A stretch of DNA of 64,000 bases from a virus (Duplodnaviria; Caudoviricetes), in IMG/VR virus record IMGVR_UViG_3300032303_001959, positions 8,845-72,844 of that record; one strand, 5' to 3'. Below are positions 23,516-53,312 of the stretch, piece by piece. Under the pieces are notes generated by a model. It was not told the origin of the DNA. It was given only the letters and a program-made list of their open reading frames with translations, and made no database searches. Made by a program: the position numbers and the translations under genes. Each line of letters starts with the position of its first letter. Within the stretch, counting starts at the first letter, position 1.

Positions 23516-23578
23516 CGCTGTTTTGTCAATAAAAAAATGAGGTCCTTTTTGTAGCAAAGCCTTGTTTTGCAACAACTT

Positions 23579-23619
23579 GGTGCGGTGGCTGAGTGGTCTA
23601 AAGCGACGGTTTGCTAAAC
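23579..23619 (+). mobile_element. attP: attP core: 5' half of tRNA-Ser(GCT)
   Basis: GGTGCGG-TG-GCTGAGTGGTCTAAAGC-G-ACGGT-TTGCTAA-AC gives acceptor 5' strand, D arm and anticodon loop (GCT). tRNA similarity stops two bases past the loop. Lies about 130-150 bp upstream of the integrase. Confidence 0.8.
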
Positions 23620-23733
23620 TGCTCACTGTCAATAATATATACACATTTTGTCTACCCTTTTCTTGAGTAAAAACGACTTACAGTTGACACTCATGACACG
23701 GGAACGGTCATAGAATGTATATCTTTTCCTTGA

Positions 23734-23757
23734 CATCAGACAGTAATTGTCAGTAAT
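23734..23757 (+). repeat. 24-bp direct repeat, copy 2, overlapping the integrase promoter
   Basis: CATCAGACAGTAATTGTCAGTAAT, inside TTGACA(23730)-N18-TAATGT. Confidence 0.7.
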
Positions 23758-30399: not shown

Positions 30400-30636
30400 A
30401 TGAGCGTAGACGTAAGAGTACGCATTTCAGCGGTCGAGGGTGAACTCAAGTTTGAAGTTCACACCGATCATATGGATGCACAACCAGTCGAAAAGACGGT
30501 AGCGGAGGAGCTCAAGGGCCTCACCTGCCGGATGCTTGACCTATATCTCGAAACCCTCAAGGAACCCAAAGAAGAAATCCAAGCCGAATGCGAAACATTG
30601 CCATCGATTTCGAATCCTACTACGACAACGAGCTGA
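30400..30636 (+). CDS. hypothetical protein
   Basis: 78 aa, SD-like AAGGA upstream. Confidence 0.5.
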   Translation: MSVDVRVRISAVEGELKFEVHTDHMDAQPVEKTVAEELKGLTCRMLDLYLETLKEPKEEIQAECETLPSISNPTTTTS

Positions 30637-32348
30637 GCATTAAGACGCTCGGCCAGTGGCACTACCTACGCGATCCGCGTGGGGAGATCTACATGGTGTC
30701 GATGGTTGGTGACGGTATTGAGCCGTATTGCGGTCCCGTGGACAAGGCTCCCTGGGACAAGATCGACGGCTGCCGGTGGATTGCGCACAACTACAGCTTT
30801 GACGGAGCTTGTGTTGAGGCTCTTGGTGGCCGAATCAAGCCGAAGCCCGCGGATTTCTTCTGCACGGCCAATCTTGCGGCTTACCTTGGGTCTCCTAGAG
30901 ATCTGGAGGGCGCCTGCACGAACCTCCTTGGTAAGGAGATTTCGAAGGATCCTCGTAAAAAGATGAAGGGCAAGAAGTGGTCTGATATCATCAATACTGA
31001 GTTTGCGGAAGAGATGACGCAATACGCTTTAGCGGACTCTGTGAGCTGTTTGGAGCTCTACAAGAAGTACGGATCGGAAATGCCGGAGATCGAGCGCAAG
31101 CTGTCCAAGCACACGATTGAGATGGCGTGGAAGGGTTTTGCGATTGATCAGCCTCTAGTAAGAGAAGGCATCAAGAAGCTCGATAAAATCAAGTGGGAAG
31201 CAGAACAGAAGCTCCCGTGGATGGACAAAGGAGATGGCGTTGTTCTCTCCATCAAGAATTTTAGGGCCGAGTGTATCAACCAAGGTATCCCCTGGCCGGA
31301 TTCCCTTTCAGAAGATTCCGAAGAGTGTGCGGTATGGGAAAAGAAATACGGCGACAAGGTTCCTTTTGTTGCCGCCATGCGGGATTGGAGAAAATCCAAT
31401 TCCTACTTGGTCAAGATGAAGGTGCTCGATTCTCGTGTGCGTCCAGATATGACGGCGTCTTACGGCATGAAGTTCTTCGGGGCACATACGGGTCGGTTTA
31501 GCGGAGATAGCCGCTTTAACGTCCAGAATTTGCCTAGGGAACCCCATTTCGGCGTCGATATGCGGGGCTGTATCATTCCTCGCCCAGGCAAGAAGTTCAT
31601 CGTTTGCGATCTGTCCCAGATTGAACCCAGGGTTCTGGCTTGGTTGTCCGGGAATACAACCCTCCTGGAAGCCGTCCGTAAAGGATATGGCATCTACGAA
31701 GCCTTTGCCATCTCAGCCAATCTCTGGAACGGAGAAAAAGGAACACTTAAGAAAACCAATACAGCCATGTACCAGCTTGCCAAGGCAATGGTGCTGGGTC
31801 TTGGGTACGGCGCAGGAGCAAAGAAGTTCGCCTACATGGCCAACACAGCATACGGCCTGGAGATCGATGAAGCTCAAGCGGCAAACATTGTTAGAACATA
31901 CCGATCTAAAAATCATCACGTCGTCAATTTCTGGAAGAAGTTAGAAACGGCTTACAAACAATCCAAAGCAGACGGACAATACGAGATCGAGCTTCCCTCC
32001 TGGAGAAGCCTCAGATACCGCAACATCCGCACACAAAACCTCGCAAGCGGATACGCGGGATACACAGCTCAGACCATCATGGGTGGTCCTCACGTCAATT
32101 TCTACGGCGGGAACTTATGTAATAACACCGTTCAGGCTACAGCCCGGGATGTCATGGCCGAATGCATCCTCCGATTGGAAAAGGCTGGCCTACCCCTTGT
32201 CCTTCACGTTCACGACGAAGCCGTTGTGGAGGTCGACAAGGATGTTAAACCAAAAGATGTGGAAATGTTGATGTCGGTAACCCCGGACTGGTTACAAGGC
32301 TGCCCGGTCGCAGCCGAGGCCGTGGAAACCGACAGATACGTTAAATAG
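30588..32348 (+). CDS. polA: DNA polymerase family A with 3'-5' exonuclease
   Basis: AIDFESYY (ExoI), HNYSFD, DLSQIEPR (motif A), KAMVLGLGYG (motif B), HVHDE (motif C). Confidence 0.95.
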   Translation: MRNIAIDFESYYDNELSIKTLGQWHYLRDPRGEIYMVSMVGDGIEPYCGPVDKAPWDKIDGCRWIAHNYSFDGACVEALGGRIKPKPADFFCTANLAAYLGSPRDLEGACTNLLGKEISKDPRKKMKGKKWSDIINTEFAEEMTQYALADSVSCLELYKKYGSEMPEIERKLSKHTIEMAWKGFAIDQPLVREGIKKLDKIKWEAEQKLPWMDKGDGVVLSIKNFRAECINQGIPWPDSLSEDSEECAVWEKKYGDKVPFVAAMRDWRKSNSYLVKMKVLDSRVRPDMTASYGMKFFGAHTGRFSGDSRFNVQNLPREPHFGVDMRGCIIPRPGKKFIVCDLSQIEPRVLAWLSGNTTLLEAVRKGYGIYEAFAISANLWNGEKGTLKKTNTAMYQLAKAMVLGLGYGAGAKKFAYMANTAYGLEIDEAQAANIVRTYRSKNHHVVNFWKKLETAYKQSKADGQYEIELPSWRSLRYRNIRTQNLASGYAGYTAQTIMGGPHVNFYGGNLCNNTVQATARDVMAECILRLEKAGLPLVLHVHDEAVVEVDKDVKPKDVEMLMSVTPDWLQGCPVAAEAVETDRYVK

Positions 32349-32537: not shown

Positions 32538-34655
32538 ATGAGTCTTTACGCCCTGAAGAATCTGGCTTCCCTGGAGGTAACTCCAGTCGACGCCTGGCTT
32601 CACACAACCCCACTACCCAACATGACCAAGGAGGAGTTTTCCTCCTGGTCTACCAACCCCTCGACAGACTGGCTGTTTGTGTCCGGCTTTGAGGGTCGTG
32701 CACCCAACCTGCGTGTCTCCCGTGAGAACCAGGCGGTCAAGATGCACGCCCTTGTAGCCGACTACGATGCCCAGATTACAGCTGAGGAAATGCTTGAAGG
32801 TCTTACTCGTCGCTCAAAAGCCGGGATGAAACCCGCCTACGCCCACCGAACAATTAGTGGTGGGGTAAGAGTTATCTGGCTGTTTGAGAAACCCGTAGCC
32901 ATCGCACCTGGGATATTTGATCCCTTCATCACTCGTCTGATGAAGGAGCTCAATGTCCGTAAACTGTTCCCTGGGCTGGATGACAACATCCGTAAGCCAG
33001 AACAGTACTACGCCTGGAACCCTCCAGCCACCGAGGTCAGCGACAACCGAGTTAAGTTTGATACCCTCTGTGCACTTCTAGCTTCAGCCTTTGACGCCTC
33101 TCACCGCTACCGTGGTGAGGGAGATACCGAGATACCTGTAGATAAGATCAAGGAACGGGTAGAGAGCCTGTTCCCCGGTCGACTTCGTGGGTCTCTGGAC
33201 ATCAACGGACGTTGTAATGCTTTTTGGTCTCCGGATTCCAACAATCCGTCGGCTTGTATCGTTACGGCAACCGGGATGGTTTCATTCTCGCAGGATCGGG
33301 CGTTTTATCCTTGGGCAGATATCTTGGGTGCGGATTGGGTCGATGAATTTAACAACACTCGTCTGGGCGGACCTCTGGGTTCGTACTGGTACGACGGAAG
33401 TAAGTATTGGCGCAGGGACATGGAAGGCAGCTGGAGAGACGCACCTTCGGAGACAGCTCGCAAGGACATTGCAGGCTTGTTCGGTTTGAGTCTCACCAGC
33501 GATGCCCGAGGAGATATGTCCGAGACCGACGAGGCTATGCTTCGCATTCGGGAAAACCGTCGTGTCGATGCCACCGGCCCCGTGCTTTACAGCCATGAAG
33601 AGCTCGTGCGATTTGGCAGCCGATGCATCCTCAACACATCCAGGGTAAAGGTCATGCCCCCAAGCACGCTCGTGGGCGAGTGGGGCGAGCACTTCCCTTG
33701 GACAGCGAGTCTGTTGGACGAGTTCTTCGATCCGTCTGACAGTCTCCAGTACTTCCTGGCCTGGCTGAAACGGTTCTATACCACAGCCAGTGCCGGGGCC
33801 CCCGCCCAAGGTCAGGCCGTGTTTATCGCCGGTCCGGTCGAACAAGGAAAAACCCTAATCGGTACCAAGATTGTCGCCGCGCTAATGGGAGGAGGTTGCG
33901 ATGCCTCCTCTCACATCAGTGGTGGGGATCAGTTCAATAACGAGCTCTTCGAAGTTGGCGTGCTCAACATTGACGATACCGTCGCTTCGACCAGCTACGA
34001 GAAACACCTTCTCTTCACCAACTCGATCAAGAAGTTCGTCGCCAACACTCAGCATCGTCACCGTGCGATGCGCGAGAATCCAACGACGATCAACTGGATC
34101 GGGCGGATCATCTTCACGCTGAATGATGACCCCGAATCGATGAGGGCGATCCCCTACACCGACACCTCAATCCTGGACAAGATCATGCTCTTCAAAGCGA
34201 GGCACCGGAAGTTCCCCTTCCCTCCCCGCCAGGAGATCGATCGGATCTTAGCCAGGGAGTTGCCCAACTTTGCCCGCTGGCTCCTTGACTGGACACCAGC
34301 CTCGCATCTGGAAGGCACCAACCGGTTCGGCGTAACGAATTATCATCACCCCGACATTTTGGAAGATACGAGAACAACCCACCCTAACCACGCTTTCTCC
34401 GAACTCCTCGATAAGTACCTCATCAACTACAAAATCGCGGCGAACGGGAAAAACCCAAAACAGTGGGTTGGTTCAGCAACCGACCTACTCAACAACATGC
34501 TTAATGATGCCGAGCTCGAAAAGCTCGCGCGTCATTACGTTTCAAGTCCGGACCGCATGGGTCAGAGATTGGCCAAAATTATGGCTATCCGACCTGAGCA
34601 GGTTATCCGGCGCAAATCAGGAGGAAAAATAACATGGGAAATCAATCTGGAGTAA
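32538..34655 (+). CDS. primase-helicase (AEP/PrimPol N-terminus, SF3-like C-terminus)
   Basis: LVADYD and HRTISGGVRVIW (AEP-like); GPVEQGKT Walker A and LNIDD Walker B. Confidence 0.8.
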   Translation: MSLYALKNLASLEVTPVDAWLHTTPLPNMTKEEFSSWSTNPSTDWLFVSGFEGRAPNLRVSRENQAVKMHALVADYDAQITAEEMLEGLTRRSKAGMKPAYAHRTISGGVRVIWLFEKPVAIAPGIFDPFITRLMKELNVRKLFPGLDDNIRKPEQYYAWNPPATEVSDNRVKFDTLCALLASAFDASHRYRGEGDTEIPVDKIKERVESLFPGRLRGSLDINGRCNAFWSPDSNNPSACIVTATGMVSFSQDRAFYPWADILGADWVDEFNNTRLGGPLGSYWYDGSKYWRRDMEGSWRDAPSETARKDIAGLFGLSLTSDARGDMSETDEAMLRIRENRRVDATGPVLYSHEELVRFGSRCILNTSRVKVMPPSTLVGEWGEHFPWTASLLDEFFDPSDSLQYFLAWLKRFYTTASAGAPAQGQAVFIAGPVEQGKTLIGTKIVAALMGGGCDASSHISGGDQFNNELFEVGVLNIDDTVASTSYEKHLLFTNSIKKFVANTQHRHRAMRENPTTINWIGRIIFTLNDDPESMRAIPYTDTSILDKIMLFKARHRKFPFPPRQEIDRILARELPNFARWLLDWTPASHLEGTNRFGVTNYHHPDILEDTRTTHPNHAFSELLDKYLINYKIAANGKNPKQWVGSATDLLNNMLNDAELEKLARHYVSSPDRMGQRLAKIMAIRPEQVIRRKSGGKITWEINLE

Positions 34656-35290
34656 TCGAGCCACAGAGATCGGTGGCACCACTATTTAGCACCCCGCTGT
34701 TCATCTCGCAGCTGGGACAACCCGACAGCCAATCTGTCGCGGTCGTTAAAAAGGCGGATATGCGTCGCGTTAAAGCCGACAACGGATGGGCTTCCGTCGA
34801 CACCAGGATTCTGGATGTCCCGGACATGCAGTATCTGAAGGGCTCCATCCTTCGAGAGATCAATGCGTATGCATTCGAAGCTCTCGGCCTAAAGAGAAAG
34901 TATCAGTTCCAAATTACCAACTCTTGGGTCATGAAGCACCAGAAGGGTGACTTTTCTCACGCTCATGCACACGAGAATTCACTGATCTCGGGTGTCTACT
35001 ATGTAGAGACCTACGAGAACAGCGGCCCAATCTTGTTCTCCAAGTCCTACAAAGACTTGAACCTATTCCCCGCTTTCTTTGGCTGGGAATTTGAGAAGAG
35101 AGACATCTTGAGTGCAGACGTGTGGCCCGTGCTGCCCAAGAACGGAATGTTGGTTTTGTTTCCTTCTCACCTGTCGCATCACGTGGAACCGAGTCAAGCA
35201 GATGCCGACCGGTACTGCATTGCCTTCAACGTGTTTGTGAAAGGTAAGTTCGGCTCAGAAGAAACCTTCAGTGCCCTGGAGATCCTATGA
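34634..35290 (+). CDS. 2OG-Fe(II) oxygenase (TIGR02466-like)
   Basis: SWVMKH..GD...HAHENSLISGVYY, LFPSHLSHHV, RYCIAFN. Confidence 0.85.
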   Translation: MGNQSGVIEPQRSVAPLFSTPLFISQLGQPDSQSVAVVKKADMRRVKADNGWASVDTRILDVPDMQYLKGSILREINAYAFEALGLKRKYQFQITNSWVMKHQKGDFSHAHAHENSLISGVYYVETYENSGPILFSKSYKDLNLFPAFFGWEFEKRDILSADVWPVLPKNGMLVLFPSHLSHHVEPSQADADRYCIAFNVFVKGKFGSEETFSALEIL

Positions 35291-35828: not shown

Positions 35829-36062
35829 ATGCCACTAGGTAAAAGAGATTACGCCAAGGAATACCGGGAGTATCACGGTAAGCCTGATCAAATTAAACGT
35901 CGTGCTGGTCGTAACGCTGCTCGTCGAACGATGACTAAACGTCGTGGGCTGGCTGCTATGCGTGGAAAAGACGTCAATCACAAGGACGGCAACACCATGA
36001 ATAATGCAGCGTCGAACCTGAATCTTGAGTCAAAGAGCGTGAATCGCGGACGAAAGTATTGA
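35829..36062 (+). CDS. HNH endonuclease-like protein
   Basis: RDYAKEYREYHG...RNAARR...DVNHKDGNTMNN..SNL...NR. Confidence 0.7.
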   Translation: MPLGKRDYAKEYREYHGKPDQIKRRAGRNAARRTMTKRRGLAAMRGKDVNHKDGNTMNNAASNLNLESKSVNRGRKY

Positions 36063-36078
36063 CTAATTCAAGACAGTA
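36057..36078 (+). promoter_or_regulatory. conserved promoter/operator box, start of cassette 1
   Basis: TATTGAC-TAATTCAA-GACAGTA-TT-TAATAT, overlapping the HNH stop. Confidence 0.7.
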
Positions 36079-36094
36079 TTTAATATAGGAAGTT

Positions 36095-36418
36095 ATGGCA
36101 TACGAACCCTCCAGCAGCGACAACGAGAATTATTCTTTACGGAAAATCAATCAGCTAGCCTCGGATTCTGAAAAGGATTCGAGTCTTTCCCTGGGGCAGT
36201 TTGGAGCCGTTTACAAGACTGCTGCCGGCGCTCTTACGGGCGGGCCTTGGGGCGCTATTCAGGCGACGGCCACGGCGGTCGTTAACGTAACATCGGGCAA
36301 CTGGACTGATAGTGATGCAACGACGGCCGTTGATATTGCAGCGGGAGCAACCATTTTTGGTTCTTTCTCCGCAATCACGCTCACCAGCGGAAAAATTATT
36401 GCTTACAAAAGCGCTTAA
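36095..36418 (+). CDS. small beta-rich putative virion protein (cassette gene A)
   Basis: 107 aa, GPWGAIQA...FSAITLTSGKIIAYK. Confidence 0.55.
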   Translation: MAYEPSSSDNENYSLRKINQLASDSEKDSSLSLGQFGAVYKTAAGALTGGPWGAIQATATAVVNVTSGNWTDSDATTAVDIAAGATIFGSFSAITLTSGKIIAYKSA

Positions 36419-36424
36419 ACGGCC

Positions 36425-38410
36425 ATGCCGAAACTCGGCTTAGGCTTATTGTTATCGCGTTCTAGGGGTGCTAGTAGCGCAGTCAATTCTTCAAATGTAA
36501 TAAATTTTACTTTGTCGAATTATACTCCTTCTTCGCCAAACTTCTCTTTTAATTCTATACCCAATTATACTAATTATGTAGACCCTAATATTGCATATTC
36601 TCTGCCTTTATCTTCCCCAGTTGTAGGAAAATTAAATGTTTCTTATGTGTCCTTGGTTTCTCGGGTTTTTATAACAAAAGTTACATCTAGGGATTTTTGG
36701 TATCTGAACGACTACGGAGGCTATTCATATACTAGTTATTACTTTATTTTGAATAATAACGGGTCTACATTTACAAAAGATTTCTATAGGCGTGAGCTTG
36801 CTGGTACAGATTATAAAGGAAATGAGTATTATGATTTTTTTTATGAGACAACTTGGACATTAAGCTGGAACGGAACCGCTTGGCAGTTATTTGGAAAAGC
36901 AAATGTTGGTAGCACAGCAGGTGTTTTAAAAACTTATGTTGGGGGGTCTGCGTCTGCTCTGCCTTCCCCACCTGTATGGGGAAATGATTTAGATTTAGAT
37001 TATTATATTAATTACACTAATTCGCTGAGCGACAGCAATATGAACGGAGCTTCTAATCAACTTTATTTTGCAACGCAGTCTTCTAATAATGTTTATAAAG
37101 CAAAAACTATTACTTCAACACTTACGCAAACAGGAAAATTAGGATTAATTTTTAATTTCTTATTACCTTCAGTTTACACTACTGGTTCGCCTTCTGTTTC
37201 TTCATCCTTTAGTAACTCTTATACAAGTTTATTTAGTCCCCTATTTAATTTTTTATCAGCCCAGATTAATGCTTTTACTTCACCTATATCTTCAGATATT
37301 TATTTACCGAAAGATGCTGTTTCGTCCACTTCAATATCTTTAACTACTAATGGAGATTTAACTGATTTAACTAGCCAAGCTTTATCCTCTTTAAGTCAAA
37401 CAAGCACTACTCTTACTAATAGTAATTTTTCAGCAGTAACATATTCTATATCCGCTGATCTAACTGAAAACACTACTTCTTCTAATCGAGCCATATCGAT
37501 TAGTGGCACAAAAACATACGATAATACATCATTTACTGCGGCCTCCAATGCCTACCAGATAGGCACTACAGCCCCAAGCCCGAGTATTTCAATATCTTCA
37601 AATAATACAACTCCAAGGAACTTTTATCTTACCCATATAGGAAGCGGGTTTAGTACTAGAACTCTAGGTGAAAATGAAGGGATAGCTTTTTGGGATTCTA
37701 CACGAAAGTTGTGGGCAATACCAAAAATGGGGCAATATATTAGATATTATGGTGGAAAATACGAATTTATTAACATAAATGGGACAACTATAGAGACCTC
37801 TGCTGGGTCTAATCCTTGGCTTGCTAATACAGATGCTTGTTCACCAACAGTAATGCCTTGGAATGCTAGGTGGCAACAAAACATAGATGTATCTAAACAT
37901 TATTTTGATAGTATGCAAAAGCCGACAACTCTTAATATTGACACAACATTTAAGTTTCCTTTAAGTGGTGTTAATATATCTTCATTTAAAATCAAATCTT
38001 CTCAAAGAAATATTGGTGGGTATCTTATTGATAATTTTAAACTTGGTCAGTATAGAAAATTGGCATTTATGGGTATAAATGCAAAAGCCCCGCAATCAGG
38101 TTATCCCGATAGTGGGGTTCGTATGTACTACAGCTATGCAGAAAATAAATGGTTTTTAGTTATATATGAATCTGTTTCATATAAAGGCAATTCTTCTGGA
38201 AACGCTTACACATATTCAGCACCTTATTCAACTTCGTTTCCAATTACATTTACCTATGTGTCGAGAGCTAATACTTCTTCATCCACAATTGCAACAACTT
38301 TACAAGTTTCAAAGGATACTACAACAGCTTTTGATGATGTTTATACTCTTGCCGACGCAACTTACCCCATCACAATTCCAGTAGATACAGCTTTTTCATC
38401 TATTTGGTAA
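36425..38410 (+). CDS. Ser/Thr/Tyr-rich putative virion accessory protein B1
   Basis: 661 aa, starts MPKLGLGL, AT-rich, W-rich beta motifs (TLSWNGTAWQL). Confidence 0.6.
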   Translation: MPKLGLGLLLSRSRGASSAVNSSNVINFTLSNYTPSSPNFSFNSIPNYTNYVDPNIAYSLPLSSPVVGKLNVSYVSLVSRVFITKVTSRDFWYLNDYGGYSYTSYYFILNNNGSTFTKDFYRRELAGTDYKGNEYYDFFYETTWTLSWNGTAWQLFGKANVGSTAGVLKTYVGGSASALPSPPVWGNDLDLDYYINYTNSLSDSNMNGASNQLYFATQSSNNVYKAKTITSTLTQTGKLGLIFNFLLPSVYTTGSPSVSSSFSNSYTSLFSPLFNFLSAQINAFTSPISSDIYLPKDAVSSTSISLTTNGDLTDLTSQALSSLSQTSTTLTNSNFSAVTYSISADLTENTTSSNRAISISGTKTYDNTSFTAASNAYQIGTTAPSPSISISSNNTTPRNFYLTHIGSGFSTRTLGENEGIAFWDSTRKLWAIPKMGQYIRYYGGKYEFININGTTIETSAGSNPWLANTDACSPTVMPWNARWQQNIDVSKHYFDSMQKPTTLNIDTTFKFPLSGVNISSFKIKSSQRNIGGYLIDNFKLGQYRKLAFMGINAKAPQSGYPDSGVRMYYSYAENKWFLVIYESVSYKGNSSGNAYTYSAPYSTSFPITFTYVSRANTSSSTIATTLQVSKDTTTAFDDVYTLADATYPITIPVDTAFSSIW

Positions 38411-38431
38411 ACAATAAAAAGGAAATAAAAT

Positions 38432-38974
38432 ATGATATTTTTTAAATACGATCAAACTAAAAGTATACTAGCTTTCTTAGGAAGAAGTGGTTCCTCATCT
38501 TTTACTAAAGCTTTTATTGGAGAAGAAGCTTTTAATAATTTTACTCCATCAGAAGGAAAAGCGACTCCTCATATTCTCAATAAAGTTTGTTATAAGTACC
38601 AGCTTTTAGAAAACCTATACCCGGATTACACAATCTATGCAGTAATAAGGCATCCATTTGAAAGATTTCAAAGTGCTATGAACCACAAGAAGAAGTCTTT
38701 TGAGTATTTCTTAGAAAATCCTTTCGATGTGCATACTAAAAACGCATACGAACTAATCAAAGGATTAAATGTAGTGGCTTACAGATTTGAAGACGGGGGA
38801 GTTAATAATTGTGCAAAGGCTATGGGTCTGGACAACTTTGAAAAGATTAACTCGACCGACCATGTAATTACTTTAACAGACGAGCAAAAAGCTATTCTTT
38901 CTGAGAAATATGCAAAAGATATAGAGCTTTGGAACAGCATTGATGAGAATGGAAAAGCTATATTTGTAGAGTAG
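38432..38974 (+). CDS. sulfotransferase-like protein C1
   Basis: 5'-PSB-like loop GRSGSSSF, 3'-PB motif VIRHPFERFQS, C-terminal EKYAKDIEL. Confidence 0.7.
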   Translation: MIFFKYDQTKSILAFLGRSGSSSFTKAFIGEEAFNNFTPSEGKATPHILNKVCYKYQLLENLYPDYTIYAVIRHPFERFQSAMNHKKKSFEYFLENPFDVHTKNAYELIKGLNVVAYRFEDGGVNNCAKAMGLDNFEKINSTDHVITLTDEQKAILSEKYAKDIELWNSIDENGKAIFVE

Positions 38975-38996
38975 TATTGACTGTAAAAAGACAGTA
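38975..38996 (+). promoter_or_regulatory. conserved promoter/operator box, start of cassette 2
   Basis: TATTGAC-TGTAAAAA-GACAGTA directly after the C1 stop. Confidence 0.7.
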
Positions 38997-39013
38997 CATA
39001 ACCTAGAACAACC

Positions 39014-39046
39014 ATGGAATACGAACCCTCAAGTAAAAAAGCTTAA
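39014..39046 (+). pseudogene. 10-codon deletion remnant of cassette gene A (MEYEPSSKKA)
   Basis: ATGGAATACGAACCCTCAAGT matches the 36095 start ATGGCATACGAACCCTCCAGC (18/21) and is fused to an end resembling that gene's ...GCTTAA. Confidence 0.7.
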
Positions 39047-39052
39047 GTTGTT

Positions 39053-40432
39053 ATGCCAAAACTCGGCTTAGGCTTAATACTGGCAAATGCTAAATCAAAT
39101 GCTATTCGCCTAAATACTCCTCTTCGTGTCGCTATTACGGGGATTGGTAATTTTATATACAATGGGTATGATGGGTATGATCGATTCAGCAGTAGATATG
39201 CGTCCTTGCCATATTCATTTTATTGGGATTCTACGTTTACCACAAGTGAATCATATTACTATTCAAGTTCATCATATACAGAGGGTCCTGATATGAGAAC
39301 AAAGAGTGATATAATTGGAACAGTATGGAATGGAAAAACTGTTACCGTTGCGGGAGCAGTAACTCAAATAACAATATCCTATTCCCCACAAACATTTACA
39401 TATTCAAGATCAGTTCCTACGGTTGCTTTTACACCCAGCGTGACAAGTTTTCAATCGCTTATGAGAACTTATTACTTGCAGTTTGACAAATCTAATGCGG
39501 GTTCATATAGCGCTACAATCCTTGGAGATGAATACCCGGATTATAGTTGGTCGACTACCGCAATACCAATCACAATAACAAAGAAAGATGTAACCCTTAC
39601 CCTTTCAGCTGGAACCAGCACATACGGGCAAACGCCAGTAATAGCCACAATTACGGGTCTTGTTTCTGGGGACTCAATTAATACTTCATTTTCTGGTTTG
39701 GTTACGCAGTCTCTACCTACTTCTACTTCTAATGCGGGCACATACTCAATTACATTTAACCCGTCGTATACGAGCGCAAATTATAATATAACAAATTCTC
39801 CGGCTTCTGTTACTTGGACAATCAATAAAGCCAATCAAACTATTAGTTTTAGCCCAAGTACTTCTGTATACACGGGCTCTTCTCAGACTTTAACTGCTTC
39901 TTCGTCGTCTGGATTGCCAGTATCTTTTAGTATTATTAGTGGTCCTGGTTCATTAAGTGGAGCTGTTCTTTCATATACAGGGACTGGAACTGTTGTAGTA
40001 AGAGCAAGTCAGTCGGGGAATACTAATTACAATGCGGCTTCTAGTGTGGATAGCTCCATAACGGTTACAACTCCCGCCCCCGATATATCCTCTTCCGTCT
40101 CCTCCCTTCATTTAGTTTTTTACAATGGATATGGAACAGGCACTGGGGGATGGGGGTTGGATGATAATAATAATGTTGTACTCAACAACCCACCTCTTTT
40201 TACCAGAATTTATTCCGACCCCTTTGGTTTCGGGAATACATTGGCATTTTCGTTCAATAATTGGTGGTTCTTACAGTGGGCGGGAGATCGTTGGGCGCTT
40301 GGAGTTGATTGGGGAAAAGGACCTGGAGTTTGGCTGAATTCCCTTCCATGTAGCATTTCCTACATACCTGCAAATCAATCACAATGGGAAACATATGGTA
40401 ACACAGGTGCCGTTATCAGGGTTGTGCCATAA
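39053..40432 (+). CDS. Ser/Thr-rich putative virion accessory protein B2 with MBG- and Ig-like domains
   Basis: 459 aa, starts MPKLGLGL. TKKDVTLT..STYGQTP...NAGTYSIT is MBG-like; KANQTISF...SSSGLPVSF...VRASQSGNTNYNAA is Ig-like. Confidence 0.65.
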   Translation: MPKLGLGLILANAKSNAIRLNTPLRVAITGIGNFIYNGYDGYDRFSSRYASLPYSFYWDSTFTTSESYYYSSSSYTEGPDMRTKSDIIGTVWNGKTVTVAGAVTQITISYSPQTFTYSRSVPTVAFTPSVTSFQSLMRTYYLQFDKSNAGSYSATILGDEYPDYSWSTTAIPITITKKDVTLTLSAGTSTYGQTPVIATITGLVSGDSINTSFSGLVTQSLPTSTSNAGTYSITFNPSYTSANYNITNSPASVTWTINKANQTISFSPSTSVYTGSSQTLTASSSSGLPVSFSIISGPGSLSGAVLSYTGTGTVVVRASQSGNTNYNAASSVDSSITVTTPAPDISSSVSSLHLVFYNGYGTGTGGWGLDDNNNVVLNNPPLFTRIYSDPFGFGNTLAFSFNNWWFLQWAGDRWALGVDWGKGPGVWLNSLPCSISYIPANQSQWETYGNTGAVIRVVP

Positions 40433-40437
40433 ATTAT

Positions 40438-40977
40438 ATGTTCATTATAAGCGATAATTATAAATGTGCGGTTGCCTTTTTTGGAAGAAGCGGTTCATCT
40501 TCTTTTGCAAAAGCATTTTTGCCAAAGGAAGTGGCTGAATCTTTTGCGCCAAAAAGCGGGGTTCCGTCTATTCACTCACTTTGTAAGTTATGTATGCCTC
40601 AATATCTTGCAGAATTATATCCAGATTATACAAAATATGCCGTCATAAGACACCCATACGAAAGATGGCAGAGCGCCATAAACCATACCGAAAAGACATT
40701 TGAAGAGCTTATGGATCGCCGCGCGTGGGACGTTCATATCAAAAGTTGCACAGATACAATCAAAGGAATAGAGCTTAAAGCCTATCGATTTGAAGATGGT
40801 GGGGTGGAGAATTGTGCCAAAGACATTGGCATACCAGATTTTGAAAAAACAAACTCAACTGATCACATCATTACTTTGACGGATGAACAAAAAACTATTT
40901 TAGATGAAAAGTATGCAAAGGATATTGAGTTGTGGGGTGGCATCAACGAAAACGGAAAGATTATAGCTTTGGAGTAG
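40438..40977 (+). CDS. sulfotransferase-like protein C2, paralog of C1
   Basis: GRSGSSSF, VIRHPYERWQS, AYRFEDGGV and STDHIITLTDEQK are shared with C1. Confidence 0.7.
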   Translation: MFIISDNYKCAVAFFGRSGSSSFAKAFLPKEVAESFAPKSGVPSIHSLCKLCMPQYLAELYPDYTKYAVIRHPYERWQSAINHTEKTFEELMDRRAWDVHIKSCTDTIKGIELKAYRFEDGGVENCAKDIGIPDFEKTNSTDHIITLTDEQKTILDEKYAKDIELWGGINENGKIIALE

Positions 40978-43900: not shown

Positions 43901-43922
43901 TACTGACAGCGTTTAGTCAGCA
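43901..43922. promoter_or_regulatory. conserved operator-like box
   Basis: TACTGAC-AGCGTTTA-GTCAGCA. Confidence 0.6.
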
Positions 43923-43975
43923 AGAAAAATAAATTAAATTTTTCTCATACGTGTATCTATAGAACTTAAACTAAA

Positions 43976-44117: not shown

Positions 44118-44441
44118 ATGGCATATGATACCCAAACCGTAGCAGCTCAAACCGCAACAACTTACGCACCGAAGAACGATGCGTTGTACTTGACGGTGAA
44201 GCGGAGCAAGTTCGGCCACCTCGGCACGATCAACCCCAGCTCGAACAACGGCTCGGAGCAGGCCGCTGCTCTCGCCGCCCTGGCGAAGATCGCCCTCAGT
44301 GGCAAGAGCTTGGACATCAGCGTTCGCACGTCGAAGGACGATGCGGAGAACCTCACCCTGCGCTTCTCGGTGAGTTCGTTCGTTCCGCAGCAGCGGACGT
44401 CGTTGGCAGAGCGGCTCGTGACCGCTCACCTCAATAGCTAA
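44118..44441 (+). CDS. hypothetical protein; likely first early gene
   Basis: 107 aa, strong SD AGGAG. Confidence 0.65.
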   Translation: MAYDTQTVAAQTATTYAPKNDALYLTVKRSKFGHLGTINPSSNNGSEQAAALAALAKIALSGKSLDISVRTSKDDAENLTLRFSVSSFVPQQRTSLAERLVTAHLNS

Positions 44442-44454
44442 TTGAGGCTCCGGA

Positions 44455-44702
44455 CCTCGTGGGGACTGCAAACCCACGAGGAACGGTTTATAATCAGTGG
44501 ACGGTGAACGATGTAAGTAAGAGCCATGCTAACTCTTAAACGCATCCTGCAAGGGATGTGAGATATCAAATGAGGATTAGGCTCGCAAGGCAGCTCTGAG
44601 AGGAGTTGAAAAGGTTATGTACAAACCGTACCTGCTTACATCGTTCACCCTTCATTGATCTCGTGGGACAGTAAAACCACGAGGAACGGTTTATTAAACC
44701 GT
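44455..44702 (+). ncRNA. candidate structured non-coding RNA (~170-250 nt), class not recognised
   Basis: 25-bp closing helix (44493-44517 with 44635-44659; two G-U pairs, one mismatch) enclosing five hairpins, three with GNRA loops. Flanked by two copies of a CTCGTGG..CCACGAGGAACGGTTTAT hairpin unit. CTGCAA-N17-TATAAT lies upstream. Confidence 0.65.
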
Positions 44703-44705
44703 AGG

Positions 44706-45167
44706 CTACACAGTGATAACTGGATTACTGGCAGTTACTGACACCGAATCTTGTGGAAGTTGTTGTAAAACCGCAATGTTCACTGTTTGAGTTTTCGAGC
44801 CTTCCGACAAGCCAAAAGCTGTCGTTGCCACACGATTCACCTTTTCCAATGCAGTAAAGTGTTCTTCAACTTCGCCGCGGGTAGCTGGGGCTTCTGCCTC
44901 AAGCGCATTCATCCCGCCTTCAACCTGTTTCTTTAACCTTACTAGATATGATTGGGCTTCACCCACCATTTCTGTCGTTGCAACACGATGCGCTTCTGCC
45001 ACTCGTTGCAGAGATTGCTGCTTGTAAGTTGCAAGTTTGAAACGCGCAACGTGACTGCGTATCGACGCAGCATTCACGTTGAATCTAGTAGCTAATATCT
45101 GAGGTGGAATACCTTTCGCGTATTCCGCTTCGATCGGACCCCAATCAATCACTGAACGCTGTCTCAT
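44706..45167 (-). CDS. terS: terminase small subunit-like HTH protein
   Basis: IDWGPIEAEYAKG...ILATRFNVNAASIRSH (HTH), helical core, AFGL...TVNIAVL C-terminus. Confidence 0.55.
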   Translation of the reverse strand: MRQRSVIDWGPIEAEYAKGIPPQILATRFNVNAASIRSHVARFKLATYKQQSLQRVAEAHRVATTEMVGEAQSYLVRLKKQVEGGMNALEAEAPATRGEVEEHFTALEKVNRVATTAFGLSEGSKTQTVNIAVLQQLPQDSVSVTASNPVITV

Positions 45168-45210
45168 GCTGTTGCAGCGATTGTATCAGACGTTGCAACT
45201 ATTTGCAAGC

Positions 45211-45232
45211 TACTGACAAACAACAGTCATTT
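45211..45232. promoter_or_regulatory. conserved operator-like box upstream of terS
   Basis: TACTGAC-AAACAACA-GTCATTT. Confidence 0.45.
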
Positions 45233-45420
45233 TAACCACGATCGATAAACCACAACCCATAACCAAGGAGACAACCAAATGTTACCTATATACGCAGTCA
45301 TCTACAGAGGACACGTGCAATACGAGTTCAAACGTCGTGAAGACGCTTGGGACTACCTAGTACGACGTGGCTGGCGTTGGTCTGACGACGCCTACATCAC
45401 CACTTACTAATCCAATTTCC

Positions 45421-45468
45421 TGCAACGCGGTACTTTGCCTCCGCGTTGCATCCTGACGGTAAGGCAAA
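45421..45468 (+). promoter_or_regulatory. H-type RNA pseudoknot immediately before an SD
   Basis: Stem 1 TGCAACGCGG/CCGCGTTGCA; loop TTTGCCT pairs with AGGCAAA (45462-45468); GAGG at 45473. Confidence 0.5.
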
Positions 45469-45640
45469 ACAAGAGGTACATATATGCGTAACATGATCCC
45501 AATCGACTATGTCGAAGTGGAAGAAGACACCAACCAATCAACCCTTGATGCCGTGAGCAGCGAGTACGTTGCAATGCGGCACCCCATGCTCGACACGGAC
45601 GAAGCGTCCATGCGGGCTGAGTGCGTCCGGAGGTTCATCA

Positions 45641-45970
45641 ATGATTAACCTAACCGAACAACTCGAAGCGATCCGGCCTAGCTTGAACCTCAAGCCCAAC
45701 CCGGTGCAACCGACAGCCAAAGTACCGGTACCAGCACAGATCATGCGCATCCCTGCCAAGGTGATGCGTGATGGCGTAGCCTGGTCGCCGACCTATTGGT
45801 ACAACCCCAAGAGTAACCACGATCGATGCCGTGCAATGAGCGAGCTTCGATCTGCGTTGCAGTATGGCACCAGCTTGGAAGGCTCAAACGCTTCCCGTTG
45901 GGGCGTACAGATCGGGGACAAAACCTTCACCGTCAACCCAGTTGGGCTGACCGAGTGGATCAATAGTTAA
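45641..45970 (+). CDS. hypothetical protein
   Basis: Probable start MINLTEQLEAIRP inside the 45569..45970 ORF. Confidence 0.5.
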   Translation: MINLTEQLEAIRPSLNLKPNPVQPTAKVPVPAQIMRIPAKVMRDGVAWSPTYWYNPKSNHDRCRAMSELRSALQYGTSLEGSNASRWGVQIGDKTFTVNPVGLTEWINS

Positions 45971-45971
45971 T

Positions 45972-45993
45972 TATTGACAGGCATGTGCTAGTA
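45972..45993 (+). promoter_or_regulatory. conserved promoter/operator box
   Basis: TATTGAC-AGGCATGT-GCTAGTA. Confidence 0.5.
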
Positions 45994-46035
45994 GTTCAAT
46001 CCTTTAGCACCTTCCTGACAGAAAGGATAACACCC

Positions 46036-46401
46036 ATGAAAACCAAGACAGAACCTACAGTCGACAAGATCAAGATACCAGAAGACATCGCCCACATTCT
46101 GATTCAAGTCGCCAACCAAAAAAGCAAGAAGCGGACCAAACAAACACGCCAGTATTACACGGAAATGAGTGAGCTCTTCGAGAAACACAAGATGGGTGAG
46201 CTCCATACCGTTATGTCCATCAAGAAACTTTGTTTCTTTATGGAAGTATTCGGCGAAAACAAAAAGCTTTTCAACTGGTTCAAAAAGCTTTCGTCACAAG
46301 ACCACCAAAGGTTGGTGCACAGTTTTGTGCCGCCTTACATGAACCGCGACGAGATCTGGCCCAACTTGTGCAAGTTCGGTGAGGTGCTGATACGGACATG
46401 A
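46036..46401 (+). CDS. hypothetical protein
   Basis: MKTKTEP start with an AAGGA SD. Confidence 0.55.
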   Translation: MKTKTEPTVDKIKIPEDIAHILIQVANQKSKKRTKQTRQYYTEMSELFEKHKMGELHTVMSIKKLCFFMEVFGENKKLFNWFKKLSSQDHQRLVHSFVPPYMNRDEIWPNLCKFGEVLIRT

Positions 46402-46492
46402 GTACCCTACTAGACTACGCGAAGATCGTAGCCGTTGCGTTGGGCGGACTCGTCATGTTCTACACCCTTTGGGTGTTGCTGGAGTTGATCTG

Positions 46493-46816
46493 ATGACCGT
46501 CGAGATTGACTACGCTGAAGCTAAGTTCCGGCATGATGACCGGTTATACATAGCTATCGGCGGAGTAACCCACAATACCAAGGCAGAACACGCAGGTATC
46601 GGAAGCTACGAATACTGGGGCTGTCGTGAGTACGACACCAAGGTAGTAGCCGTTAGTGAGTTCAAGGACGCCGAGTTCATCGACGTCTGCATCTACCCCG
46701 ACGGCGACACATCACCCTTAGGCGATCCATCAGATGCCCTAGTAACAGCAGCCGAAGAAGCCTTGTTCGACAAGACGTACGAACGGGCTGAACAACAAGC
46801 AGCGGAGGCAACATGA
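46493..46816 (+). CDS. hypothetical acidic protein
   Basis: MTVEIDYAEAKF... inside the 46469..46816 ORF; contains GIGSYEYWG. Confidence 0.5.
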   Translation: MTVEIDYAEAKFRHDDRLYIAIGGVTHNTKAEHAGIGSYEYWGCREYDTKVVAVSEFKDAEFIDVCIYPDGDTSPLGDPSDALVTAAEEALFDKTYERAEQQAAEAT

Positions 46817-47296
46817 AACCTACAACCGAACAGATCAAAGCAGAGCTAAAGAAAATAACCAAAGACTTAGAGAAATACCGCAAGTTCATACCCAACGAGC
46901 ACGAAGAGTTGCTCTGCGTGGGTTGGATCGAGGCACTGACATGGGTCTTAGGCGAGGAGGAAGCATGAACAACATTGAGATACTGAGAGCAGCACTACAG
47001 GACTTTGTAGATTTCTACAATGATCCAAACATGCCGATGGCTGAGCTTGTTAGCCGGGCTCAAGAAGCATTAGACAAAACTAAAGGAAGTTACTGAGGGT
47101 AAAGTATGAAGAAAGCATCTGTCTGCGCTAACAGCTATGCCATCCCCGGTAGCTACCCAATCAAGAAGCTAAGGGCGAGGGCTAAACCTCAGATTATTTA
47201 CCGGTACGGCGAGTACTGGGAAGAACGCAGGGTCAGTTCAGCTCAGCGAGAACGAGGAGTGTTACAGCAATTCGTTCTTGTTAAGAAGGAACAGCT

Positions 47297-50124: not shown

Positions 50125-52470
50125 ATGATCATAACAAACTCAAGACAGACACCGTTTCAGTCAGCACAGTTTGTAGAAAAACAATTCAGTATCCGCATCA
50201 ACCCTAAACTATTCGAGGCTCTCGGTTCGTTGTACACGGACCCAATCCTAGCCATCTGCCGTGAGTACATGACCAATGCAGATGAGGCACACCAGCTTGC
50301 CGGTCACAAGCAACCCATCCGGGTTACGTTACCCACGGTACTAAAGCCTGAGCTCGTCATCGAGGACAAGGGTCCTGGCTTATCGCAAGATAAGATCTTT
50401 GAGCTGTTCACCACATACGGTGCAAGCGGCGATGAGAAAGAGACAAGCAATGCGTACGAGGGTGGCTTCGGTCTAGGCGGTAAGTGCTGGCGGTCCTATG
50501 CCGACAGCATCATCGTTGAGTCCAAGCACGGTGGGGTCAAGACAATCTACTCGTTCTTCCTGGACGAGACGGGTATGGGTAAAGCTGCTGTCCTTGATAA
50601 GACCGCAGCTACCGGCACGGGTGTCACCATCCGTATCCCCATCAAGAAGGATGACATCGGTACCTTCACTGCACGCGCAGTAAAGATCGGCTCGATGTTT
50701 CCTGTCCGACCTACCTTCACCAACCTAACAGACGCACAGTTCAAGGAGTCAATGGATAACGACGCGGACTTTGCTAACCGGGCTACCATCCACAAAACAG
50801 ATAAGTTCAGTTACTTCGGGGATGGCTCTGCTTCGTATGTTCGTATGGGTAGGTTGGTCTACCCCGTCACCACTCAGCATCTTCCCTCCAACTTCAGCGC
50901 GATTCTCAAGAGTCTGCTCGAAGCTGGTGTGTTGATTAACTACACAGTTGGCGAACTGGATCTTGCGCCTAGCCGTGAGACGCTTAAGTACACCACCAAA
51001 ACCGTATCGGCTTTGTTCGGTGAGCTGAAAGCTGCGGCTGACGGGATGGCTAAGGGTATTCTTAAGGAAGTCAATGACCTCCCTTCGGAGCACCAAGCCA
51101 TCATCAAGATCAATGAGCTGACCCGTAAAGCATTTCGGGGCGGCAATCATTACAATAACGACGTCGAGAAGTTTAATTGTCAGTTGGCTGATAAGCTGGA
51201 CAAAAAGTGGACGTGGCAAGACAAGCCGCTTCTACATAAAACCTATGAACTAGGTAAAGCGTTCCCACCTGAACCATCGGGTTACCCGAACACAACGGTT
51301 GAATACTACAAGTCACTAGGTTTGTGCAGTCGTGTGTTTTGGTTGAGAAACTGGGGCTCTAAAAACTTACAGTTCCAAGATGAACGGGAGATCATCCCGT
51401 CCAAGCGTGCTGCCTTCGTAACGACAGGTACTCGCATGTCCTCACCCAATGCGAGGATTAAGAAGTATCTGAACGACAACAAGGAGGTTGACCACGTTTA
51501 TGTGCTGGGTCTTAGCGACGCAGCCAAAGCCAAGGTCCTAGCCAAGTACCCGGGGTTGATGAGCTTACCGTTCATCGAAGCCGATACCTTGCCGCTACCT
51601 GAAAGGGATAGCTCCGGCGACGGCAGCACAGCTGCTGGCGTTAAGAGTAAGAAGCACTGCAAGGGCAACGTGTTTGTGTTCGATGGCAACAATTCGAATG
51701 CAGAGAAACGTTCCGACTTGTGGAGCATAACCAAAGACTACGACTTAGACGTACAAGAGATCTATGTCGTGTTGGATAACTTCCACGCCAACACCTTGAA
51801 AGGTGGGCACTTTGGTATGTGTCTCAACACCGCCAGGAAAGCACTGGCTTCAGTAGGTATGAAGTTTGCCCACATCCACGGTATCAAGACTAGCGAACTA
51901 GATAAGGTTAAAGACTCCAAGTGGTTGCATATCACTGAAGCCTTCGACTTAGCCTGCGCCAATCTTGATGCTGACGAAGCATTGAAGGCCAAGGTCTACC
52001 CGATCATGGCCTACTCGATGGTTGGCAAAGGACTTCATTGGTCCGACAGACCAAAGAACATGACGGAGAAACAACACGGCAATCTGTCTTATCTGAGAGA
52101 GATGCTTAAACGAGTGAGCTCGTTTGTTGAAGGTGCAAAAGGACTTGATGAAGTTCTGTTGGATCTTAACCGCGAGTTCAAAGCGTTGAGCGATGAACGT
52201 GCAACCTACGAATGTTGGTTGAGCATGGCATACACCCTCGACTTTAAATGGTCAAACGTTGTGGGGTATGAGCCAGCGATCTTCGACAAGATCCGTTCCT
52301 TACTCAGAGATTACCCACTGCTGCGTTACTTCAACTACAACTCCAATAGTTTGAACGACACGTTCAGATCTAAAGGGGTCGCAGCCTTGAATGAATACAT
52401 AACTTTGAAGCAACCCCTGGTTCAGAAGAATCAGGCTCAGCTTCCCAACAAAGAAAGAGAGGTAGCATGA
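50125..52470 (+). CDS. rIIA: RIIA-like protein (N-terminal GHKL ATPase)
   Basis: LYTDPILAICREYMTNADEAH, IEDKGPGLS, GGFGLGGK, LDLAPSRETL. Confidence 0.85.
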   Translation: MIITNSRQTPFQSAQFVEKQFSIRINPKLFEALGSLYTDPILAICREYMTNADEAHQLAGHKQPIRVTLPTVLKPELVIEDKGPGLSQDKIFELFTTYGASGDEKETSNAYEGGFGLGGKCWRSYADSIIVESKHGGVKTIYSFFLDETGMGKAAVLDKTAATGTGVTIRIPIKKDDIGTFTARAVKIGSMFPVRPTFTNLTDAQFKESMDNDADFANRATIHKTDKFSYFGDGSASYVRMGRLVYPVTTQHLPSNFSAILKSLLEAGVLINYTVGELDLAPSRETLKYTTKTVSALFGELKAAADGMAKGILKEVNDLPSEHQAIIKINELTRKAFRGGNHYNNDVEKFNCQLADKLDKKWTWQDKPLLHKTYELGKAFPPEPSGYPNTTVEYYKSLGLCSRVFWLRNWGSKNLQFQDEREIIPSKRAAFVTTGTRMSSPNARIKKYLNDNKEVDHVYVLGLSDAAKAKVLAKYPGLMSLPFIEADTLPLPERDSSGDGSTAAGVKSKKHCKGNVFVFDGNNSNAEKRSDLWSITKDYDLDVQEIYVVLDNFHANTLKGGHFGMCLNTARKALASVGMKFAHIHGIKTSELDKVKDSKWLHITEAFDLACANLDADEALKAKVYPIMAYSMVGKGLHWSDRPKNMTEKQHGNLSYLREMLKRVSSFVEGAKGLDEVLLDLNREFKALSDERATYECWLSMAYTLDFKWSNVVGYEPAIFDKIRSLLRDYPLLRYFNYNSNSLNDTFRSKGVAALNEYITLKQPLVQKNQAQLPNKEREVA

Positions 52471-53312
52471 ACATAATCATAACCGAAAATGACCTGACTG
52501 CGGTCATCAACAACAAGTCCTACACCCTCCGCAAGGAACACCCAAACTTCCGGTTGGTGGTGGACGGTATCAAGAACAAGCTCCCTGAGACGGAGATCGT
52601 TGACTTGATGGACGTCACCAAGAGCGTTGTTCACTACACCGACGGTAAGGTGGAAGTGCGTAACGGCGAGGTGTTCTACGACAACGAGCCAGTACAAGGC
52701 ACGTTGGTAGAGCGTCTGCTCAGCTTCATGCAGGAAGGTCTCCCGCATGAACCCTACATAAAGTTTTTAGAAAACCTTATGCAGAACCCCAGCAGTCGTA
52801 GCCGGTCTCAGTTGTACCGCTTCCTTGAGCACAAGAGTTTGCCCATCACAGATGATGGCTGCTTCCTTGCGTACAAGGGGGTCAGGGACAACTACCTGGA
52901 CTGCCACTCTGGCACGATCGACAACAACCCCGGACGGCGCATCACCATGCCCCGTTCCAGGATCTCAGATGATCCTGACCTGGGTTGTCACACTGGGTTA
53001 CACGTGGGTAGCGAGGAGTATGCGACCAGCTTTGGTCAGCGTACCGTCATCGTTAAGGTTAACCCTCGTAACGTAGTGTCAGTCCCCTTGGACTGCGAGT
53101 GCCAGAAGATGCGGGTCTGTGAGTACGAGGTGACGGCGGATTACGCCGGCTCCATGCGTCAGACTTACAGCTCCAGCAATACTGGGTACGGTGACAATAG
53201 CTATTACAACGATACCGATAATGATTGCAGCGACGAGGATGAGTCCGGTGCATGCAGCACTTCCGTCCTCAACCCCAATCGTTACGAGTACAAGTTCACA
53301 CATCAGGTCTAA
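52467..53312 (+). CDS. rIIB: RIIB-like protein
   Basis: FLENLMQNPS...QLYRFL...ITDDGCFLAYKGV...GLHVG...VKVNPRNVVSVP.D...KMRVCEYEV. Confidence 0.88.
   Translation: MNIIITENDLTAVINNKSYTLRKEHPNFRLVVDGIKNKLPETEIVDLMDVTKSVVHYTDGKVEVRNGEVFYDNEPVQGTLVERLLSFMQEGLPHEPYIKFLENLMQNPSSRSRSQLYRFLEHKSLPITDDGCFLAYKGVRDNYLDCHSGTIDNNPGRRITMPRSRISDDPDLGCHTGLHVGSEEYATSFGQRTVIVKVNPRNVVSVPLDCECQKMRVCEYEVTADYAGSMRQTYSSSNTGYGDNSYYNDTDNDCSDEDESGACSTSVLNPNRYEYKFTHQV

Follow-up and report, generated by a model that had tools for sequence, protein, structure and literature searches.

One intergenic site in a freshwater phage lineage is a hot spot for two small non-coding cassettes, X (in five types) and Y: near-identical phages carry one of them or neither, or have both in stacked or fused form. 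The explanation that we tentatively favour is that X is an immobilised, MITE-like palindromic cassette of IS630 type, shuffled by recombination between hairpin units and acting at most in cis. The match of its arm to an IS630-type end, together with the swapping of cassettes, makes a trapped miniature mobile element likelier than a new RNA machine, and we infer that X does not serve as a dedicated RNA machine in trans. The element is genuine. Its kind is familiar, with both PeSL-like shuffling and MITE-like elements already known from phages, but its details are unusual; the cassettes occur in a single phage lineage, and there is no sign of a new catalytic or essential RNA.

A folded non-coding cassette between convergent genes

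The window analysed here is a stretch of 64,000 nucleotides, corresponding to bases 8845-72844 of the 72,844-bp IMG/VR phage record IMGVR_UViG_3300032303_001959. The record represents a freshwater phage of 72.8 kb with direct terminal repeats. Coordinates without a locus name are positions in the window, and features lie on the plus strand unless noted otherwise. Folds and an alignment of 10 copies belonging to 5 types delimit the cassette of the window as X type A, 167 nt long (44492..44658). In the list of open reading frames it occupies the 3' flank of a gene for a 107-aa protein (44118..44441), and a convergent gene for a 153-aa protein follows on the minus strand (44706..45167). The 107-aa protein has no match in Pfam, PHROG or NCBIfam, and its 16 homologous protein clusters all come from relatives of the phage. 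The convergent gene was called terS in a preliminary description of this DNA, a name for which Pfam, PHROGs and NCBIfam offer no terminase support. The 153-aa protein was also considered as kin of the IS630-family transposase or its DNA-binding domain, and proved unrelated on comparison. A simple promoter scan places promoter-like sites for the two genes near 43901-43930 (107-aa gene) and at 45208-45180 (153-aa gene).

The most prominent feature of X is a closing helix, P1, formed by the left (44493..44517) and right (44635..44659) inverted repeats; of its 25 positions, two are G-U pairs (44497, 44500) and one is a C-C mismatch (44502). This helix, already reported in the preliminary description, can be read directly from the sequence and is reproduced by the minimum free energy fold. 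The internal hairpins likewise lie where they had been placed, except that the energy model favours pairing of 44521-44525 with 44580-44584 (P2) over a local TAAGAG/CTCTTA stem. P2 encloses a hairpin at 44541-44560, whose arms (44541-44548 and 44553-44560) are capped by GCAA, and is followed by P5 (44591-44608; arms 44591-44597 and 44602-44608 around GAGA) and P6 (44613-44627; arms 44613-44616 and 44624-44627 around a 7-nt loop). Folding of 44442-44710 yields -113.8 kcal/mol on the plus strand (z = -9.01; none of 200 shuffles folds as well) and z = -6.52 on the minus strand, and the interior alone (44518-44634) reaches only z = -1.65 on the plus and +0.34 on the minus strand. Most of the fold signal is thus contributed by P1 and the hairpins on either side of the cassette rather than by the interior. 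No open reading frame that could explain the region is conserved across the versions of the cassette, as had been noted for the single copy. The source gene calls do place an 80-aa ORF on the minus strand over type C (L083:1827-2069 and L084:1827-2069); it has no family match and no counterpart in the other types, and is probably a spurious call.

The searches agree with the earlier view of a structured non-coding element outside the catalogued families: the fold is strong, its scaffold recurs in relatives, and Rfam has no match for it. The window returns no Rfam hit at gathering thresholds and only noise at E up to 10, and the loci carrying types B, C, D and Y give no hit at E up to 0.5. Rfam covers ribozymes, 6S, Y RNA, RNase P, tmRNA and group I/II introns, none of which was matched, and ARAGORN found neither a tRNA nor a tmRNA. 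GenBank phages yield no match by blastn; exact arm and unit words in IMG/VR and JGI metagenomes find this phage lineage and chance hits only. A covariance model, R1, retrieves its own training copies and weaker minus-strand echoes only (26 sources, five phage records). Two functions proposed earlier are not borne out. Nothing supports a ribozyme, and a packaging RNA is excluded by the complete relatives that lack X and by the absence of an adjoining terminase gene. For comparison, the pRNA that is essential for packaging in phi29 is likewise phage-encoded and of similar size, and its two ends pair into a long helix with hairpins at a central junction. X differs from it in being absent from complete close relatives, in belonging to a phage unrelated to phi29-like phages and in having no terminase gene beside it.

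Filled, empty and stacked sites in related phages

Relatives of the locus were collected by a scan for an 18-mer of the hairpin unit, followed by queries with both flanking proteins. The resulting 58 loci contain 22 distinct spacer haplotypes, of which 4 are cut at contig ends and 18 are complete. Among the complete haplotypes, 7 are empty, 10 contain X and one (L120) contains Y alone. The empty state consists of a 61-nt spacer with one hairpin unit; it is the commonest arrangement (36/58 fetched loci) and already holds two hairpins. L004 represents a near-identical filled site and L005 a close relative with an empty one, in which the single hairpin unit runs directly into the downstream flank. 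Compared with the empty site, the inserted block of the window is 44492-44694 (203 nt), that is, the 167-nt X and a second unit.

The X copies of the ten haplotypes fall into five types, A-E, of 137-244 nt. All types have the first ~32 and last ~70 nt in common and differ in the middle part, which some lack. In L057 the two cassettes are stacked, with Y behind X and a unit; in L113 they are fused, and L085 has a variant of the fused form. The same upstream protein can be found next to quite different contents. Identical copies of one such protein (P0001) adjoin type C, type D plus Y', or an empty site; those of a second (P0010) adjoin A, or B plus Y; a third (P0014) is found next to an empty site or D, and a fourth (P0015) next to E or an empty site. 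Identical upstream proteins beside different cassettes, or beside none, imply that turnover is fast relative to point mutation. The genome of the phage in the window carries one copy of X, and two complete relatives (G455 and G456; 72.3 and 76.2 kb) carry none anywhere in the genome, so that X is accessory and dispensable.

The second cassette, Y, is non-coding and about 110 nt long, with a short closing helix around two hairpins and a further hairpin behind them. It is located at L120:1831-2050 and L057:3650-3800, and after X in L113 and L085. Y has its own extended version of the hairpin unit, with 14-16 bp, and its first ~14 nt resemble a collapsed pair of X arm tips. Its fold reaches z = -9.0 on the plus and -6.2 on the minus strand, with no match in Rfam.

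Hairpin units and the exchange of cassettes

The hairpin unit upstream of X, H1 (44455..44491), consists of a stem (44455-44463 with 44473-44481), a 9-nt loop and a 10-nt conserved tail (44482-44491). It is present in every relative, whether the site is filled or empty, and its stem shows U-A to C-G changes with U-G intermediates. The second unit, H' (44660..44694), is a diverged copy of H1 with a stem at 44660-44666 and 44677-44683 and a tail at 44684-44694; its loop differs from that of H1 and its tail is the same. The reported occurrence of the unit on both sides of the cassette (44455-44491 and 44660-44694) therefore stands: an 18-mer from its 3' part is present exactly twice, against 0.05 occurrences expected, and nowhere else in the window, which confines it to the cassette locus. 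The tail of the unit and the downstream flank together form a short palindrome, H2 (44685..44702), whose centre in empty sites is the exact position where cassettes occur.

Comparison of the relatives' haplotypes shows that every cassette boundary is formed by a hairpin unit and the conserved tail. Chimeric units are also present, as in L098, where the second unit has been converted and carries a loop of the H1 type. Judged by these junctions, the hairpin units are the apparent exchange points where cassettes are gained, lost and swapped. The preliminary description took the repeated hairpins for the ends of an RNA; they are not merely ends, but mark the gain, loss and swapping of cassettes in relatives. 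Recombination in the common 3' part of the units would fit the observed junctions, with the left unit keeping the resident loop and the right unit carrying the other. Exchange between the units of an array unit-X-unit-Y-unit can account for every state observed; for the fused X-Y forms, the crossover would have joined the end of X to the start of Y at a short word similar in both.

Such an arrangement has a known parallel in the PeSL motifs of T4-type phages, composites of a stem-loop and a promoter at which recombination generates indels, replacements and mini-circles (PMC2839356, PMC4122927). In both cases small accessory cassettes are flanked by a short repeated stem-loop with a promoter-like motif, the motif delimits the indels and replacements that distinguish very close phages, and recombination at the motif accounts for deletion, stacking and chimeric units. 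There are also differences. The cassettes described here are non-coding, whereas PeSL cassettes are ORFans; no more than 1-3 copies of the unit are present, all at one locus, whereas PeSLs are found throughout hyperplastic regions; the -35 element is weak, and promoter and terminator are putative; and the phage is not T4-like.

The sequence CTGCAA (44466-44471), a 17-nt spacer and TATAAT (44489-44494), all reported earlier, are read directly and form a candidate sigma-70-like promoter (44466..44494), with the weak -35 hexamer in the loop of H1 and the TATAAT created at the junction of H1 and the cassette. Eight of the 10 X copies have the junction TATAAT, as do both Y junctions that follow a hairpin unit; in L057 and L098 it is mutated. 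Simple consensus scans detect no promoter and no terminator at the hairpin units, and no canonical terminator, with a hairpin and a U-tract, is found at H1, X or H'.

The arms of X resemble the end of an IS630-family element

The right-arm 18-mer of X was scanned against a 596-Gb library in which each prokaryotic species is represented by a single genome. In a library of this size an exact 18-mer should occur several times by chance, and the arm match is notable only by its position at a transposon end. Of the nine hits obtained, six look random; the other three are at the ends of contigs from two Verrucomicrobiota MAGs, one of which is Opitutaceae. These three contig ends are the end of an IS630-family insertion sequence. 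A full copy, about 1.24 kb long, is found in a related genome (L134:2-1243, from G025:C774). Its minus-strand gene (L134:33-1172) specifies a transposase of 379 aa in which DDE_3 and HTH domains are recognised, and the element terminates in CTAG, the classic IS630 target. The end sequence of the element is multi-copy and present at several contig edges in three Verrucomicrobiota MAGs (loci L121, L126 and L123), as would be expected of a multi-copy insertion sequence that breaks assemblies.

The right arm in the window (44640-44658) agrees with the inner terminal inverted repeat of the insertion sequence at 18 of 19 positions, and in types C, D and in L113 the right arm is 19-20/20 identical to it. 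The matched part corresponds to about positions 9-27 of the element's end, inside the cleavage tip, and the left arm of X is a diverged copy with 3 differences. We estimate the probability that the arm, itself one half of an inverted repeat, would land in a transposon inverted repeat by chance at 0.001-0.01, a rough post-hoc figure. The reading of X as an RNA of unknown kind had not considered a mobile-DNA origin, to which these 19-20 identical nucleotides of its long stem point. The evolution of the cassette is suggestive in the same way: 21 of the 23 P1 pairs never vary and the interior is replaced wholesale, a pattern that would be expected of inverted-repeat elements.

Small, non-coding and folding into a hairpin, X has the form of a MITE. 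It shares several properties with bacterial MITEs derived from IS630/Tc1-mariner elements, such as Correia (CREE) of Neisseria and RUP of pneumococcus (PMC2649163, PMC2229807, PMC10969869): a length of 137-244 nt without coding capacity in an intergenic position at the 3' end of a gene, inverted ends of ~25 nt, one of which matches part of an IS630-family repeat, a predicted long-hairpin transcript and a -10 box made at the junction. MITEs have also been described in viral genomes, where they are shared with hosts (bioRxiv 10.1101/2024.01.18.576219). The resemblance is incomplete in several respects. The outer ~10 nt of the insertion sequence repeat are missing on both sides of X, and no parse of the junctions gives a TA target-site duplication on both sides; a 35-nt imperfect repeat, the hairpin unit, flanks the cassette instead. 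The match to the insertion sequence is limited to the 19-20-nt arm, beyond which the interiors of X have no homology to it, and these interiors differ far more among types than in a typical MITE family. X is also a single-copy element at a single locus. No dispersed copies exist elsewhere in five related phage records, no arm-spacer-arm match occurs in 401 sampled Verrucomicrobiota genomes that could be candidate hosts, and the R1 model has no match in the three MAGs that bear the insertion sequence. Recombination between hairpin units as the driver of exchange has to accommodate the confinement of the unit to this locus, unlike the PeSLs of T4-type phages, and a mobile-element origin has to accommodate the hairpin-respecting indels and the pair-keeping changes in P1 and P6, which fit a selected RNA fold too.

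With these reservations, the origin and behaviour of X may be pictured as follows. X would have originated as a miniature derivative (MITE) of an IS630-type element of the host, and the loss of the cleavage tips would have left it at one locus. Its present movement would proceed only by homologous recombination between hairpin units, as with PeSLs: recombination between units within one genome would delete the cassette, and recombination with a co-infecting relative or an excised circle would add or replace one. Transcription of the plus strand could reach X by read-through from the promoter of the 107-aa gene near 43901-43930 or could begin at the junction TATAAT, and the transcript would fold into a 25-position duplex with side hairpins. 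The likeliest effect would be exerted in cis on that transcript, with X serving as a barrier at its 3' end, as a processing site of RNase III type or as an additional terminator. Effects in cis of this kind have been described for Correia elements, which create promoters and bind RNase III (PMC2649163). Should the mobile-element reading be true, the locus would be an example outside T4-like phages of hairpin units driving the gain, loss and swapping of accessory DNA, and of a fragment of a host transposon that has settled in a phage genome and diversifies there. The likeness of the arm to IS630 would also provide a testable clue to the host of this uncultured lineage, namely a Verrucomicrobiota bacterium of Opitutaceae-like affinity.

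Selection on the fold and alternative explanations

It is possible, though on the whole unlikely, that X and perhaps Y form an accessory non-coding RNA, a 'moron' transcribed from the junction promoter, ending at the second unit and acting in trans, for example by sponging or decoying a host defence or RNA-binding protein. In that case an arms race would have diversified the variable interior, which would act as the specificity module. This alternative draws on the organisation of the cassette: a conserved scaffold of P1, P5, P6 and the joining stretches persists through five types that gain and lose whole hairpins as modules, indels among the types tend to respect hairpin boundaries, and type A has GNRA loops. 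TATAAT stands at most cassette starts, and the rapid turnover in identical backgrounds is typical of accessory and counter-defence loci. The proposed RNA is less easily reconciled with the details of its expression: the -10 hexamer is mutated in two versions, the -35 is weak, a U-tract terminator is lacking, and a transcript starting at the usual distance past TATAAT would presumably be deprived of the outer part of P1. The phage genome contains no complementarity of at least 13 nt to the cassette, the interior alone is barely structured (z = -1.65), and the family is found in one phage lineage only.

The R1 model was built, the ten copies of X realigned and their pairs counted, and 97% of the cells in the ten-copy alignment pair. 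The changes in P1, beside its invariant pairs, are one of A-U to G-U and one double change of A-U to G-C; in P6 and P5 the changes are mostly one-sided and mediated by wobbles. All changes in P1 and P6 and most of those in P5 keep the pairing across the ten copies, several through G-U pairs that are available on the plus strand only. The covariation is not significant, however: 49 of 500 shuffles reach the observed score, and only 2 pairs change on both sides. Two copies of type B (L057 and L113) illustrate how much depends on the fold assumed. Under their consensus fold all eight stem substitutions preserve pairs and 16 of the 24 differences fall in loops, but under unbiased single-sequence folds the substitutions are not depleted in stems, 3-5 of them break pairs, and the minus strand behaves alike. 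All filled haplotypes also fold 10-32 kcal/mol better on the plus strand. We rejected this preference as evidence for an RNA, finding it weak and inside the genome background, where the strand difference in windows of 280 nt has a standard deviation of 12 kcal/mol and 8% of them reach 20 kcal/mol.

The earlier suggestion that wobbles working only on the plus strand reflect selection at the RNA level agrees with the pair-preserving changes through G-U without being proved by them; the covariation is non-significant and the strand bias lies at background level. The compensatory changes sought in homologues amount to a few pair-preserving ones on the same scaffold, too thin to prove an RNA function. 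Gain and loss of hairpins on a common scaffold, together with the wobbles, are compatible with an RNA or a plus-strand fold under selection, without proving it, and the near-invariant arms with freely changing interiors would fit an inverted-repeat DNA element at least as well.

A broader version of the same idea, which we consider doubtful, is that the freshwater phage lineage keeps an array of interchangeable trans-acting RNA cassettes (X types A-E and Y) with their own junction promoters and hairpin terminators, traded through recombination at the hairpin units and directed, for example, against host defence or RNA-binding proteins. If true, the array would be an RNA counterpart of protein 'moron' and anti-defence islands, with variable hairpins setting the specificity of the decoys; trans-acting RNAs in these cassettes would make the locus an unusual RNA-only accessory island.

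A purely terminating role, in which the stems would do no more than add to the termination of transcription or insulate the convergent genes for the 107-aa and 153-aa proteins from each other, is improbable. Its location between two genes with promoters near 43901-43930 and 45208-45180 suits such a role, as does a long helix that folds on both strands (z = -9.0 and -6.5). The empty site, the commonest state with 36/58 loci, has two hairpins of its own, which means that X is not needed for termination. A canonical hairpin with a U-tract is absent from H1, X and H', and termination leaves unexplained the five types with conserved ends, the existence of Y and the IS630-like arms.

Transposases of the Tc1/IS630 group contact, through their DNA-binding domains, the part of the repeat inside the cleavage tip. 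The arms of X equal this very part and are almost invariant, the phage encodes a tyrosine recombinase (23747-25024), and the layout recalls a cassette array with a repeated hairpin unit in between; a role of X as DNA, providing inverted binding sites or an extruded cruciform for a host IS630 transposase or a phage protein, or an integron-like folded recombination site for the tyrosine recombinase, is nevertheless highly improbable. In the window and the fetched loci, the open reading frame and gene tables list no IS630 transposase close to the cassette, and the 153-aa protein next to it shows no relation to that transposase. The recombinase is encoded at a distance of 20 kb, and its only matches are to generic models of Xer-type recombinases and integrases, far below their cut-offs. 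The likeness to integron attC sites extends to a cassette array separated by a repeated imperfect hairpin, to a long stem that is imperfect, keeps a conserved mismatch and varies in its terminal structure, and to a tyrosine recombinase encoded in the genome. Unlike integrons, the locus has no R''/R' core sequences (RYYYAAC and GTTRRRY are absent from the units and arms on direct reading), no adjoining IntI-type integrase and no ORFs in its cassettes.

Other features of the phage genome

Several further observations concern the surroundings of the locus. The 22-bp pseudo-palindrome TAYTGAC-8 nt-GNCARTA has 39 matches in the window with up to 2 mismatches, against 3.7 expected. These correspond to 20 distinct sites at gene boundaries on both strands, including 9924, 17935, 21763, 36057, 38975, 40978, 43901, 45211, 45972, 48022, 53314, 58172 and 59313, and the motif is probably the promoter/operator signal of the phage. 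It brackets the cassette locus (43901, 45211) and is absent from the cassette itself. Small ORFs downstream of the 153-aa gene (45200-47000, and the matching parts of L083-L120) vary in number and size between near-identical relatives and appear in various combinations of 54 to 109 aa. Their variability places the cassette in a generally hyperplastic early region.

The gene for the tyrosine integrase/recombinase (23747-25024) belongs to a block at 23495-25024, with a tRNA-like piece upstream of the gene. This combination suggests a temperate phage that would integrate at a tRNA gene. The tRNA-like attP piece has 91-92% identity over 33-36 nt to Verrucomicrobiota MAGs, but five genomes of other phyla already reach 82-89%, which makes the match too weak to count as evidence on the host. 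The region 36000-40500 has a low GC content (0.36-0.38, compared with about 0.50 elsewhere) and contains, flanked by copies of the 22-bp motif, ORFs of 661 and 459 aa without Pfam or PHROG match; it resembles a module that was acquired horizontally or can be swapped. A fragment of a family A DNA polymerase is found at 30588-32348 and a 2OG-Fe(II) oxygenase at 34634-35290, and genes for rIIA-like (781 aa) and rIIB-like (281 aa) proteins adjoin each other at 50125-53312.
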